Source: an uncultured Smithella sp.
GTDB lineage: Bacteria; Desulfobacterota; Syntrophia; Syntrophales; Smithellaceae
Direction: 5' to 3'
Assembly: GCA_964608995.1 (NCBI GenBank)
Contig: CAZSQS010000003.1
Span: forward strand, 3,602 to 67,601
DNA: 64,000 bases
A program made the position numbers and the translations under genes. The first letter of the stretch is position 1. Each line of letters begins with the position of its first letter. Under the pieces are notes generated by a model. The model saw only the letters and a list, made by a program, of their open reading frames with translations, did no database searches and was not told where the DNA came from. Shown piece by piece: positions 51,285 through 54,400 of this stretch.

Positions 51285-52493
51285 CTATTTTTTTCTGATC
51301 CGGCGGCGCGGCTTGAGCGACGGTTCTTCAGCCGGACGCTCCACATAATTATCCCCCGGCGAGAGGACATCCGTCATGTTCACGCGCGCCGACAGTAAAT
51401 CGGCCAGCTCCGTATAGCCCAGTGCCAGCGCCATGTCGCGCGCGTTTTGCCGGCCGGGGAAGTTGCGGATGGCGGCGTTGGCGCGCACATCGGCCAGAAG
51501 CAGACGCGCCACGTCGCAGCGTCCCGCTGAAACGGCGGAAAAAAGCGGCGTCTGCCGGTCGTGATCGACAAAATTGATTTCCACGCCGGGATGCAAAAGA
51601 AGCGCCCGCACAATGTCCGCATGGCCGCCGAAAGCCGCGAGCGCCAGCGGCGTCTGGCCTTTGGCGTTTTTGAGGTTGACTGCAATATCCGGCTTCTCCA
51701 AAAGAAGTTTAATCATGCGCGTATGGCCACGCACACAAGCCAGATGCAAAGCGGTGTTTCCAGCGCTGTCGGTGGCATGAAGGTCAAGGTCGGGCCGGGC
51801 CAGAAGCTGCCTTGCAATTTCAAGGCGATCAAATGCCGCCGCGCACATGAGGATACTCCAGCGATTGTTGTGGTTTGCGTTGTTAATGTTCGCGCCGCGT
51901 TCAAGAAGCTTTTCAAAGGCAAAAATATTCCCCGCCAGGCCCGCGCGGTAAAGGGGCGTGGCGCCATCCGTCTGCCGGATATCGATTGAGATGCCCGGCA
52001 CGGCCAGAAGCAGGTCGATCTTTTCCGGTGATTGCAGGTCGCAGACCGCTTCGTGCAGGAGCGTTTTGCCGTTTCCATCGGGCTGGTTGATGGACGTTCC
52101 GGGAAGACTCAGGTAACAGGCAATCATTTCGGGCGGTGCGCTTCGCGCCCAGTCAAAACATTCATATGCCGGCAGGCTTCGGGCCAGATCAAAGCCAGGC
52201 TGCGAGGCAATCAGGCAAACGATCTGCGGCAGGGAGGTGCGAAGCGCCGTCATCAAAGGCGAGACGCTGTCGGGCCGGTCGGGATCCAGAGGCGCGTTGA
52301 GATCGAAATCCGCATTTTGCAGAATTCCCAACGTCAGGTGTTCCCGGTGCTGCAAGATGGCGTCCTCAAGCAGCCGGCCCGGCGCCGCGTCTGACGAAAC
52401 GGCTTCCCATTCCTGAAGCGCAAGCGCTCTGCAGGCGGCGCAAGCCGGGTCATTTTGCACACAGAGGCAGTTGACGGGCGAAAAAGAGGTCAT
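51285..52493 (-). CDS. ankyrin-repeat protein
   Basis: About 6 repeats (GKTLLHEA, GATPLYRAGLAGN, GNTALHLACVRGH..IKLLL, GQTPLALAAFGGHADIVRALL, RQTPLFSAVSAGR). ATG 52493 lies 2 nt after the upstream stop. The track start 52733 overlaps the effector gene. Confidence 0.8.
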   Translation of the reverse strand: MTSFSPVNCLCVQNDPACAACRALALQEWEAVSSDAAPGRLLEDAILQHREHLTLGILQNADFDLNAPLDPDRPDSVSPLMTALRTSLPQIVCLIASQPGFDLARSLPAYECFDWARSAPPEMIACYLSLPGTSINQPDGNGKTLLHEAVCDLQSPEKIDLLLAVPGISIDIRQTDGATPLYRAGLAGNIFAFEKLLERGANINNANHNNRWSILMCAAAFDRLEIARQLLARPDLDLHATDSAGNTALHLACVRGHTRMIKLLLEKPDIAVNLKNAKGQTPLALAAFGGHADIVRALLLHPGVEINFVDHDRQTPLFSAVSAGRCDVARLLLADVRANAAIRNFPGRQNARDMALALGYTELADLLSARVNMTDVLSPGDNYVERPAEEPSLKPRRRIRKK

Positions 52494-52495
52494 GG

Positions 52496-54400
52496 TTAAT
52501 CCGGAAAGGTTGCGGGATCTCTGGGGCGCAAAATATCCGACCACAGGCTCAGGGCCGGATCGCCCATGGTTTCCAGAACGCGGAAATCGCGATCCACGTT
52601 TCCGGTCAGGAAATTGACGGACGGCTGTCGGACGGCCAGGCGAAGCAGAAAATCGCGATGGCGCTCCGCGGGTGTGCACGTTGTTCCCACCATAAAGGCG
52701 GAAACATACTCTCCAAAAGAGGAAGAATTCCATTCAAACGTCTCGACGTCCGACTCCGTTTCCAGCGGTCCGAGTACATCCATCGTATAGGCCAACTTTC
52801 GCGTCAGGCCTTCCGACAGGGCCAGATCGATTTGCGACACCGGATGCCGGGCTTCGTCGGATGAAGCCGGATCAATGTCGGTTTTGCGGTGCACGGTCAT
52901 TTTTTCAACTTTTGACCAGAAGGGAATGGAGTCGTTGTAAAGAACGCTGCCGCCATACTGAGGGACGGTCCAATCGGTGGGCGTGCGGTATAAATGCACA
53001 TATTCGCGGTGAAGATTCAACCCCAGCGCCCACGCGTCGCGCACGCGGCAATAGGCCTGGACTGCGCCTTCTTCCGCGTCCGTGCGCGAAGGCGCAGTGT
53101 AAGCGCCGACCGTCGTTCCCGCCGGAACGAAGGTCTGAAATGTCGGCGGGCTTGTCGGCGGATCTGCGGGATAGGCGCGCGCATCTCCGGGCGCGACCAC
53201 GCGCCATCCCACAACCTCATAGTGGGCGGCGTTCATGAGTTTCATGGCAGCGCTCTGATTGACAAAGCCTGTGGAATTGATATACCCGCCTTCATCCCCG
53301 ACGTCATCATTGCCGGCATGCATGCTCTCATGCAGCATGGTCATGATTGATTCGATGTTGTTGGGATCGTCGATCACATCCGGTGCGACGCTGATCTGGT
53401 CGGGGCCGGTGAGCCCCCCCTCAAAAACTTCTCGTGAAAAGCCGGATCCGCGATCCGTGACGACATGATTCGGAGACAAATGGTTCATCTGGCTTTGGGC
53501 GCTCGCATACTTGGCCTTTGCCGCCGAAACGTGGGCGGCGCCGAAGACCTGCGTCAGCCAATCATCATGTGCGCCGGAGACGATGTCGCTGAAAATAGCG
53601 TCGGCGCGGGCCACAACGGTGTTAATGTTGGCTGTGTCCGTCGTGGACGGGCGGGCGTGAACATCCAGAAGCGCAGGATCTCCCAGTTCCAGCCCCGGAA
53701 ATACGGCCAAAATGGCTTCCGCGCTTCGGGTCAGCTGTTCTTCGGGTGGCAACCTGAAAAAATCCCAGATCGTCATTCCCGCGCAAAGTCGTCCAAGTAC
53801 CGATATATGTTCGGCTTGTGTCAATTCCGCCAGGGCCAGTTCGATCAGACGCCGAACACCCTCAGCGTTGGCGTCATAATTGGCGCCCTGGCCGCCGGAG
53901 ACGGCAATGAGCAGGTTGCGAATATTCGGCGGCATCCGTCGCATTTGAACCACGGCCTGAGCGGTGCCTGGCCGCGCGCTTCCCGATCCGGGCGGAGTGT
54001 TCAGGAGCGCTTCACTGGATTGGCCCGCCGCCACCCGGCCCGCCACCTGATCTGCGTGCCGTTCAAAGACATCGTCAGCGTGTCCCGGCCGGGTCACGCT
54101 CCCCGTTTGCTGCTGGATGACATGCGCGGCTTCATGCGCCGCGGTAAACAGACTGGGCGGGCGCAAAAACGTGACATTTGTTCCGCAGGTGAGTGCGTCT
54201 GCGCCCAGAGACCAGGCGCGGCGGGCGGCCGTTCGATCCGTATCCACGCGAATCTGCGAAAGATCATGATGCCCGAAAGATCGCTGAATCGCCTCCCGGT
54301 GCGGAAGCCCTGCCGCGCCGGGTGCCGGGTTTCGGGGGGTGTCCGGATGGGCCGCTTCGTGACCGCAGCGTTGACTTTGTTTTGCCGCAAATGCCTGCAT
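52496..54400 (-). CDS. DUF4157 (zincin-like HExxH) N-terminal domain protein with a second HExxH-like region; effector/toxin-like
   Basis: N-terminus LPHREAIQRSFGHHDLSQIRVDTD...ADALTCGTNVTFL...AAHEAAHVIQQ fits DUF4157. A second motif, TMLHESMHAGNDD, lies mid-protein. 634 aa, no signal peptide seen. Confidence 0.7.
   Translation of the reverse strand: MQAFAAKQSQRCGHEAAHPDTPRNPAPGAAGLPHREAIQRSFGHHDLSQIRVDTDRTAARRAWSLGADALTCGTNVTFLRPPSLFTAAHEAAHVIQQQTGSVTRPGHADDVFERHADQVAGRVAAGQSSEALLNTPPGSGSARPGTAQAVVQMRRMPPNIRNLLIAVSGGQGANYDANAEGVRRLIELALAELTQAEHISVLGRLCAGMTIWDFFRLPPEEQLTRSAEAILAVFPGLELGDPALLDVHARPSTTDTANINTVVARADAIFSDIVSGAHDDWLTQVFGAAHVSAAKAKYASAQSQMNHLSPNHVVTDRGSGFSREVFEGGLTGPDQISVAPDVIDDPNNIESIMTMLHESMHAGNDDVGDEGGYINSTGFVNQSAAMKLMNAAHYEVVGWRVVAPGDARAYPADPPTSPPTFQTFVPAGTTVGAYTAPSRTDAEEGAVQAYCRVRDAWALGLNLHREYVHLYRTPTDWTVPQYGGSVLYNDSIPFWSKVEKMTVHRKTDIDPASSDEARHPVSQIDLALSEGLTRKLAYTMDVLGPLETESDVETFEWNSSSFGEYVSAFMVGTTCTPAERHRDFLLRLAVRQPSVNFLTGNVDRDFRVLETMGDPALSLWSDILRPRDPATFPD

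Follow-up and report, generated by a model that had tools for sequence, protein, structure and literature searches.

What do two tightly spaced genes, one for a protein with two HExxH motifs and the other for an ankyrin-repeat protein, do among the genes of an uncultured Smithella sp. (GCA_964608995.1, contig CAZSQS010000003.1)? The stretch analysed comprises 64,000 nucleotides, hereafter the window, to which all plain positions refer. The first gene (52496..54400) encodes a 634-aa "double zincin" in which the open reading frame (ORF), Pfam, an alignment, and a structural model delimit a disordered N-terminus, a DUF4157 domain, a linker, and a conserved C-terminal domain. The second (51285..52493) encodes the 402-aa ankyrin-repeat partner, and both genes, like every feature assigned to them below, lie on the minus strand. 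We lean toward considering this pair as an orphan metalloprotease effector of the type found with extracellular contractile injection systems (eCIS) and a cognate ankyrin protein that would bind the effector in the producer cell, a reading to which we give slightly better than even chances. Its protease activity, toxicity, delivery, and physical binding, as well as the role of the ankyrin protein, are what we infer from the comparisons below. An earlier, sequence-only reading of this DNA had proposed an effector with an immunity or co-effector partner, and this proposal is supported at the level of sequence by homologues embedded in eCIS clusters, by the orthologous ankyrin partner, and by the cargo architecture.

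The N-terminal part of the 634-aa protein starts with residues 1-34 (54299..54400; predicted local distance difference test score, pLDDT, 28-47), a candidate eCIS loading sequence by analogy with AlgoCIS cargo. Residues 1-27 are predicted to be disordered (pLDDT <50, compared with >90 for the DUF4157 and C-terminal domains in the AlphaFold2 model) and no hydrophobic N-terminal signal peptide is seen, in agreement with the sequence-only reading. The next region, residues 35-124 (54029..54298), corresponds by Pfam and alignment to the DUF4157 domain, also named eCIS_core or PVC-metallopeptidase. The assignment to DUF4157 made earlier holds, as PF13699 (eCIS_core, formerly DUF4157) matches residues 35-100 with E 9.7e-12 and 45.3 bits, above its gathering cut-off of 22. 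In an alignment of 84 homologues, on which all conservation figures are based, H89, E90, and H93 of the first HExxH motif (H89-E90-A-A-H93, 54122-54136) are invariant, and the nearly invariant E113 (conserved in at least 90%) is the likely third zinc ligand of this site. Compared with the Protein Data Bank (PDB), the module gave a weak alignment with a thermolysin-type active site, which was not significant. A linker rich in Pro, Gly, Ser, and Ala (residues 125-153, 53942..54028), disordered over 141-153 in the AlphaFold2 model, leads to a Q-x-R-R-x-P motif (residues 152-157, 53930..53947) at the junction with the C-terminal domain. In this motif, R155 is invariant and Q152, R154, and P157 are conserved in at least 90% of the sequences, and the junction may, in our view, serve for processing or docking.

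No known domain is more specific to eCIS than DUF4157 (odds ratio 2614; PMC8213781), and validated toxins carry it at their N-termini (PMC8213781; PMC11297309), as the sequence-only reading had noted. The literature assigns it no established function (PMC8213781; PMC11297309; bioRxiv 10.64898/2026.05.27.728243); autoproteolytic toxin release was proposed when it was named PVC-metallopeptidase (PMC3482391). No other pool of predicted eCIS toxins is as large as that of the DUF4157-led proteins, and roughly 1,000 of these lack an annotated effector domain (PMC11297309). Among the DUF4157-led proteins, Cgo1 and Cgo2 of AlgoCIS (PMC8894135; bioRxiv 10.64898/2026.05.27.728243) have, like the 634-aa protein, a disordered N-terminus, DUF4157, and an ordered C-terminal domain. 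The disordered N-terminal region of AlgoCIS cargo is required for loading via an AAA+ protein (bioRxiv 10.64898/2026.05.27.728243); in Cgo1 and Cgo2 the N-terminal domain is the loading signal and the proteins are loaded into the tube lumen. Cgo1 and Cgo2 differ from the 634-aa protein in their C-terminal domains, and no ankyrin partner is described for them.

EAT4 from Mucilaginibacter sp. OK098 (Geller et al. 2021, PMC8213781; Danov et al. 2024, PMC11297309), which combines DUF4157 with a predicted peptidyl-Lys metalloendopeptidase and is toxic in E. coli (PMC8213781), resembles the 634-aa protein in having the DUF4157 HExxH and a second, putatively aspzincin-like metallopeptidase module. 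The predicted enzyme type of EAT4, compared by description only, is the same as that of the fold match reported below, although its DUF4157 was reported "within protein center". The EATs and the 634-aa family share the lack of a Sec signal and the presence of relatives encoded in eCIS clusters; the 634-aa protein differs in that the window copy lies away from eCIS genes and in that its C-terminal domain falls below the Aspzincin_M35 threshold. The PVC-metallopeptidase-led polymorphic toxins (Zhang et al. 2012, PMC3482391) likewise have an N-terminal DUF4157 and a variable C-terminal toxin domain, peptidase toxin domains being a listed class and ankyrin-repeat immunity proteins existing among them. 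In contrast to these toxins, the C-terminal domain of the 634-aa protein matches no toxin-peptidase family in the Pfam library searched, and the gene order of the zincin-ankyrin family flips between clades. The AlgoCIS-type layout, together with the DUF4157 literature and the EAT4 precedent, is the reason for which we adopted the orphan effector reading. Polymorphic eCIS toxins that start with DUF4157 and have a partner encoded next to them are of a kind already known; the new elements are modest, namely the delineation of the C-terminal family, the aspzincin-like catalytic hypothesis, and the ankyrin partnership in both gene orders.

The C-terminal domain (residues 154-634, 52499..53941) is conserved and has no Pfam or NCBIfam model, scans with both libraries giving no match. 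A search of 5.8 billion proteins returned some 100 full-length homologues sharing 33-58% identity, for which "DUF4157 domain-containing" is the most detailed annotation. When a profile limited to the C-terminal 485 residues was compared with 1.84 billion cluster representatives, 395 clusters matched with E values of at most 1e-3 and 321 with E values of at most 1e-10, clusters being defined at 50% identity. As judged from these profile matches, the C-terminal 485 residues constitute an unannotated family of about 400 clusters.

Within this domain, residues ~300-480 (52961..53503) form a putative second zincin core, aspzincin-like according to the alignment, the models, and Foldseek. The second HExxH site of the sequence-only reading, TMLHESMHAGNDD, proved real: H357, E358, and H361 of its HESMH motif are invariant in the 84 homologues, as are D369 and E395; for Y373 and H393, conservation is 90% or higher. 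H357-E358-S-M-H361, D369, and Y373 span 53282-53332, with H393 and E395 in the next helix. D369 is located 8 residues past H361, giving the motif HESMH-x7-D-x3-Y in the window, where the copy is one residue longer than the homologue consensus V-x-D-x-G-Y-I, in which D-x-x-Y is kept in most sequences. The aspzincin signature is an HExxH followed by GTxDxxYG, with the Asp acting as third zinc ligand. Most homologues keep the D-x-x-Y of this signature, but its "GT" and final "G" are not conserved, and either D369 or E395 could be the third zinc ligand of the second site.

The AlphaFold2 model of the whole protein, built from the 84-sequence alignment, is confident (mean pLDDT 90, predicted template-modelling score, pTM, 0.78), and Foldseek found a single credible match to it in the PDB, 1g12 (prob 0.94, target-normalised TM 0.57, E 0.88). 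A separate model of residues 248-482 (pLDDT 85) matched 1g12 (prob 0.91, TM 0.52, E 0.28) and 2x3b (prob 0.75, E 0.44), every other PDB match having a prob of at most 0.07. The sole credible fold matches are thus two aspzincins, the Grifola frondosa peptidyl-Lys metalloendopeptidase (1g12) and the Aeromonas salmonicida toxin AsaP1 (2x3b), so that the structure prediction and remote-homology check recommended in the sequence-only reading yielded a confident model with only weak aspzincin matches. Aspzincins are specific for Lys. These enzymes and the C-terminal domain have in common an HExxH followed shortly after by Asp and Tyr. They differ in that the aspzincins show no significant sequence similarity to the domain and are secreted with propeptides, not injected, and in that the second zincin core sits within a 485-aa domain that is mostly helical. 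Among 16 relatives, weak matches were obtained to Aspzincin_M35 in 2 (E 0.012 at best) and to SprT-like, a generic zincin family, in 7. We conclude that the second core is likely a zincin metalloprotease, as predicted from the models, and we predict with moderate confidence that it is aspzincin-like, the grading being due to the suggestive character of the sequence-level support and to the lack of a profile match in the PDB.

Sequence searches of the PDB, whether started from the protein alone, from a profile of its full length, or from one of the core, returned chance matches only (phospholipase D, thioredoxin, elastase with E 1.9, and Rep proteins). An origin of the two zincins by internal duplication was also rejected, since hhalign aligned only the 12-residue HExxH helix (probability 2%), which indicates that the two zincin modules are not duplicates.

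The presence of two HExxH sites leads to the question of which module would be toxic. We regard it as very improbable that the DUF4157 zincin is itself the toxin, in the manner of the periplasm-acting metallopeptidases VgrG2b and Tpe1, with the C-terminal domain as a non-catalytic targeting or scaffold part. DUF4157-class metallopeptidases are proven antibacterial toxins of T6SSs (type VI secretion systems) with cognate immunity proteins (PMC6899460), H89, E90, and H93 are invariant, and an alternative neighbour found in eight loci has, in at least three of them, a lipobox-like N-terminus, as do the periplasmic immunity proteins of the Tpi type. Nevertheless, the second HExxH, D369, and E395 are equally invariant, which would be unexpected for a non-catalytic scaffold, and at least eight homologues keep the C-terminal domain but have lost DUF4157. 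The window partner is moreover cytoplasmic, not periplasmic, and the growth inhibition by Cgo1 is independent of its DUF4157 motif, according to work cited in PMC11297309.

Genomic context was compared over 72 non-redundant loci (L numbers) from genome and metagenome collections. The scan of genome contigs was dominated by the generic DUF4157 pattern, the C-terminal domain being present only in L001-L004, and the metagenome scan was for this reason done with a profile of the C-terminal domain only. Nine of the 72 loci are linked to eCIS genes. In eight of these (L087, L093, L098, L103, L122, L131, L138, and L092), the gene directly follows the eCIS AAA+ ATPase gene; the ninth, L129, has only the eCIS-linked 414-aa protein. 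The full-length homologues embedded in eCIS clusters share 31-58% identity with the window protein, and that of L093 belongs to its closest relatives (58% overall, 61% over the C-terminal domain). The L093 cluster is complete, with genes for a BTAD regulator, sheath, gp19 tube, a baseplate-like protein, Pvc16_N, and AAA+, followed by a small ORF, the zincin, the ankyrin protein, a 233-aa DUF4157-only protein, CIS_tube, a spike OB domain (Phage_base_V), and gp25. In Malonomonas rubra (L092), the zincin gene is the last of a cluster with CIS_TMP, AAA, and Tox-PAAR-like genes. The gene order of L093:1-21455 and L087:2343-19059 is unusual, with a sheath/tube/Pvc16/AAA block, next the pair and the small gene for DUF4157 alone, and last the genes for inner tube, spike, and gp25. 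The viral contigs searched yielded no relatives, which argues that the module is not phage-borne.

By its architecture and by the context of its homologues, the window protein belongs with eCIS cargo; by proximity to an eCIS operon it does not, and for this reason we describe it as an orphan that would work like eCIS cargo. The sequence-only reading saw the pair as stranded away from secretion genes, and this was borne out: tblastn with two eCIS protein sets, complemented by Pfam on 40 further ORFs, detected no contractile-injection or T6SS genes in the window, and specifically no sheath, tube, baseplate, AAA, or tape-measure genes.

This absence is one of several observations that weigh against an orphan eCIS effector. 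In 63 of the 72 loci, no eCIS genes occur in the available flanks, as far as a detection panel limited for distant taxa can tell. In the eCIS lineage itself, the gene is conserved in the middle of the cluster instead of varying at the 3' end. The candidate loading segment, of about 30 residues, is short compared with the N-termini of Cgo1 and Cgo2, and DUF4157 is dispensable for loading in AlgoCIS (bioRxiv 10.64898/2026.05.27.728243). Statistically, the match of the fold is weak (E 0.28-0.88 and TM 0.52-0.57 with Foldseek), the aspzincin profiles (MEROPS M35; PF14521/PF02102) gave no match in the window protein and none above threshold among the 16 relatives, and no M35 entry was retrieved when the PDB was searched with a profile. 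Finally, many family members have no ankyrin partner, some having a lipoprotein-like neighbour and some none, which fits poorly with a universal cytoplasmic immunity role.

Some of these observations would suit a cell-autonomous protease complex working in the producer, for example in regulation or quality control with the ankyrin protein as adaptor, the occurrence in eCIS clusters then reflecting ancestry or maturation of the machine. The window and the 63 loci lack eCIS genes nearby, and the neighbours are ordinary metabolic genes; a mid-cluster gene conserved across 31-58% identity is more accessory-like than variable cargo, and DUF4157 has no established function. We nevertheless hold this explanation to be rather unlikely, given the high eCIS specificity of DUF4157 (PMC8213781), the exact cargo architecture of the 634-aa protein, and the frequent occurrence of orphan toxin cassettes in systems of polymorphic toxins (PMC3482391). 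The partner also varies by clade (ankyrin, lipoprotein-like, or none), which is typical of toxin modules.

An orthologous ankyrin gene adjoins the zincin gene in 25 of the 72 loci, downstream in 12 and upstream in 13. In the clade with at least 47% identity to the window protein, it is immediately downstream in 11 of the 13 loci with enough sequence, and wherever the junction was inspected it either shares 4 nt (ATGA) with the zincin gene or starts within a few tens of nt. The ankyrin proteins of this clade share 50-56% identity with that of the window and are colinear with it over 326-408 residues, which indicates that they are orthologues and not chance repeat matches. In a second clade, whose named members are Solirubrobacterales and Amycolatopsis, the ankyrin gene is immediately upstream in 13 loci, with a 4-nt overlap between the two genes at five of the junctions inspected. 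These upstream ankyrin proteins show 39-45% identity to that of the window in ten cases and 33-37% in three. Based on these alignments, the linkage of the pair is conserved across taxa, as in toxin-immunity pairs, and the ankyrin gene appears translationally coupled to the zincin gene in most of the clade of the window. In the window itself, the TAA of the zincin gene is followed by "cc" and then by the ATG of the ankyrin gene, confirming the 2-nt spacing read earlier.

The repeat content of the 402-aa protein is unambiguous, with Ank_2 matching at E 1.4e-55 over five stretches and Ank, Ank_3, Ank_4, and Ank_5 also above their Pfam cut-offs, all within residues ~134-309. The region that aligns colinearly with the orthologous partners is longer (residues ~40-370, 51384..52376). 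Near the N-terminus, the alignment reveals a four-cysteine motif, C-[LM]-C-x6-C-x2-C (C-L-C in the window; residues 9-21, 52431..52469), kept in the window, L089, L093, L096, L097, and L099 and absent from the shorter orthologues of L087, L090, and L104; it is possibly a small zinc knuckle. Among the NCBIfam equivalogs of Legionella Dot/Icm Ank effectors, the best score was that of AnkG, 91.8 bits against a cut-off of 500, which is generic repeat similarity only. The protein has neither DUF4157, nor a long disordered N-terminal loading region, nor a signal peptide.

Several known pairs associate a hydrolase with a neutralising ankyrin-repeat protein. In Enterobacter cloacae, the gene for the hydrolase Tle adjoins that for its cognate neutralising ankyrin protein Tli, which also activates Tle (bioRxiv 10.1101/2023.03.28.534661; PMC11470151). 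In Bdellovibrio, the peptidase Bd3459 is reported to adjoin the ankyrin protein Bd3460, which binds and neutralises it (PMC4686830). The enzymes, a lipase for Tle and a DD-endopeptidase for Bd3459, differ in class from the predicted zincin, and Tli and Bd3460 are either lipoproteins or active in the periplasm; the window ankyrin protein, for its part, has no signal peptide. The immunity role that the sequence-only reading had named for ankyrin proteins is one option only: the immunity type Imm-Ank exists, but it is rare and has been reported for nucleases and deaminases as toxins rather than for peptidases (PMC3482391), and the only eCIS-linked ankyrin protein assayed, EAT2, whose gene lies one and two positions downstream of genes with DUF4157, was toxic to E. 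coli in its own right (PMC8213781).

The toxicity of EAT2 raises the possibility of a two-component effector, in which the ankyrin protein would be co-delivered, would serve as a targeting or activating subunit for a probably eukaryotic target, or would itself be the toxic component; we see this as the less probable course, though one with a real share of the evidence. Ankyrin repeats are typical of effectors acting on eukaryotes, and the NCBIfam matches, all to Legionella Ank proteins, point the same way even if they lie far below the cut-offs, as does a distant zincin homologue fused to ubiquitin. Furthermore, the ankyrin protein evolves no faster than the zincin (50-56% versus 48-58% identity), unlike the fast-diverging immunity proteins, and Tli is needed for the activation of its effector (bioRxiv 10.1101/2023.03.28.534661). 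Immunity genes are often missing for PVC-type toxins (PMC3482391), and many members of the present family have no ankyrin partner. On the other hand, the ankyrin protein lacks the long disordered loading region and the DUF4157 of a cargo, it is encoded downstream and in translational coupling, where immunity genes classically lie, and ankyrin inhibitors of peptidases are known (PMC4686830). A more specific proposal, which we judge quite unlikely, is an obligate two-subunit effector in which the ankyrin protein would activate the aspzincin-like protease or target it to a eukaryotic (protist), possibly ubiquitin-linked, substrate, orphans being loaded in trans by an eCIS with its genes elsewhere. 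In a sub-variant of this proposal, DUF4157 would cut the effector free at Q-x-R-R-x-P after delivery. We slightly favour an inhibitor or immunity-chaperone over a co-effector for the ankyrin protein, because of its immunity-like gene position and coupling and of the Imm-Ank, Tli, and Bd3460 precedents.

Outside the two ankyrin arrangements, the family is diverse. At least eight homologues retain the C-terminal domain without DUF4157, and in most of the upstream-ankyrin loci with a readable frame the zincin has no DUF4157; these proteins begin with an "LQRTAGNRAV"-type segment, followed by an RRR-[LVI]-P junction motif, the form retained in most DUF4157-less homologues read. An LQR(T/S/L/Q)(A/M)GNRA(V/A) start is found in the DUF4157-less proteins of L002, L113, L114, L118, L133, L141, and L154, and this segment may be an alternative leader or loading motif. 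Many members have neither an ankyrin partner nor eCIS genes within 10 kb. In eight ankyrin-less loci (L112:3894-4661, L122:4343-5011, L135:1883-2656, L134:8133-9230, and also L102, L128, L129, and L142), another conserved neighbour of about 250 aa occurs, with no Pfam match and with the motif C-[RQ]-G-W-[RQ]. At least three of these neighbours have a lipobox-like N-terminus (LGLSC, LASSC), and this neighbour could be a different partner that faces the periplasm. A neighbour cluster of six ORFs, lying "downstream" on the other strand in loci of high GC, was rejected; these ORFs have no Pfam match and may be spurious.

The distant homologue of the second zincin core mentioned above, P0236 (728 aa), is encoded at L162:10001-13759 (also L163) and has an N-terminal ubiquitin domain (PF00240, E 5e-20) in place of DUF4157. 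The 496-aa product of the following gene likewise starts with a ubiquitin domain, and the contig is Bacteroidota-like, with SusD-like and Por_Secre_tail genes. Fusion to ubiquitin is uncommon among bacterial zincins and hints that the targets are eukaryotic.

Taken as an orphan effector and its cognate ankyrin protein, the pair could work as follows. By analogy with the studied systems, the short disordered N-terminus would be the loading signal recognised through an AAA+ ATPase, and the first HExxH, in DUF4157, would process or chaperone the cargo, as proposed in the literature. The flexible linker would join DUF4157 to the 485-aa effector domain, whose core would be a second, unrelated zincin metalloprotease of aspzincin-like fold, with a predicted active site made of H357, E358, H361, D369 or E395, and Y373. 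The predicted toxic activity would be proteolysis of a target-cell protein, and the ankyrin protein would keep the protease inactive or stable in the producer cytoplasm until the cargo is unfolded and loaded.

The limits and expression of the genes were also considered. The mechanical ORF list starts the ankyrin ORF at an upstream ATG that overlaps the 634-aa gene, giving 482 aa. The zincin gene is called by gene callers on five independent metagenome contigs, four of which have a complete ankyrin gene after it (402, 402, 402, and 401 aa); this choice on four independent contigs, along with the alignment to orthologue starts, is why we took the 402-aa form. A Shine-Dalgarno-like AGGAGAG (54408..54414) was read 7 nt ahead of the ATG at 54400. 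A candidate sigma-70-like promoter, TTGCAA-17-TATAAT (54473..54501; a consensus match only, at 10/12 positions), is located ~70 nt upstream of the 634-aa start codon, in the intergenic region common with a divergent histidine-kinase gene. No terminator was found between the ankyrin gene and the downstream flavin adenine dinucleotide (FAD)-oxidoreductase gene, and co-transcription with the latter is possible, although this neighbour is not conserved in relatives of the pair. In the metatranscriptome run X13, three zero-mismatch contigs fall inside the 634-aa gene (52754-52973, 53397-53547, and 53567-53717), and within window positions 49000-56000 no contig maps to the ankyrin gene, at a very low depth; as DNA carry-over is possible in a metatranscriptome, this is weak evidence for transcription. 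The divergent gene (54586-58755, plus strand), separated from the pair by the 185-nt common intergenic region, encodes a hybrid histidine kinase of 1389 aa that contains many PAS domains and is followed by a gene for a 131-aa response regulator (58774-59169).

The rest of the window contains housekeeping genes only. They include metabolic genes (glycine-cleavage, pyruvate kinase, thiolase, acyl-CoA dehydrogenase, carboxyl transferase) and genes for a sigma-54 activator, CdaA, Fe-S/ParA NTPases, a radical SAM enzyme, methyltransferases, and the multi-PAS hybrid kinase. The pyruvate kinase shares 78-80% identity with proteins of Smithellaceae bins, other Syntrophales bins coming lower in the list, and the window sequence recurs in wastewater and bioreactor metagenomes, the organism reaching a word depth of roughly 15x in one wastewater run. 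A recent transfer of the pair was considered and not retained, its composition giving no convincing sign: its GC content is 0.60, compared with 0.554 +/- 0.026 for the other genes, and its GC at third codon positions is ordinary. Elsewhere on the minus strand, a 1025-aa protein (5893-8970) has a C-terminal FGE-sulfatase domain only, with ~770 unannotated N-terminal residues, and in a 629-aa protein (60466-62355) TPR repeats occur together with an OGT-like domain of glycosyltransferase family 41. Three consecutive ORFs of 202, 364, and 206 aa around a DHH-family gene (45457-47123 and 48359-48979, minus strand) have no Pfam match.

With this family, one effector domain of the DUF4157-led pool is now defined, with ~400 clusters, a confident fold model, and a conserved ankyrin partner. 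It comes with a concrete, model-based catalytic hypothesis, that of an aspzincin-like zincin with E358 as the putative catalytic base, and it makes testable the role of DUF4157 beside a second protease, the action of the ankyrin protein as immunity protein, activator, or co-effector, and the loading of orphan cargo in trans. A protease cargo with a built-in inhibitor would, if confirmed, be a useful part for eCIS engineering. None of these implications is surprising in kind. For the organism, the orphan effector reading, if true, would be a first hint of contractile-injection warfare by Syntrophales-like syntrophs in digesters, and if instead the two-subunit reading is true, the pair would be an anti-grazer weapon of a syntrophic anaerobe of wastewater reactors.

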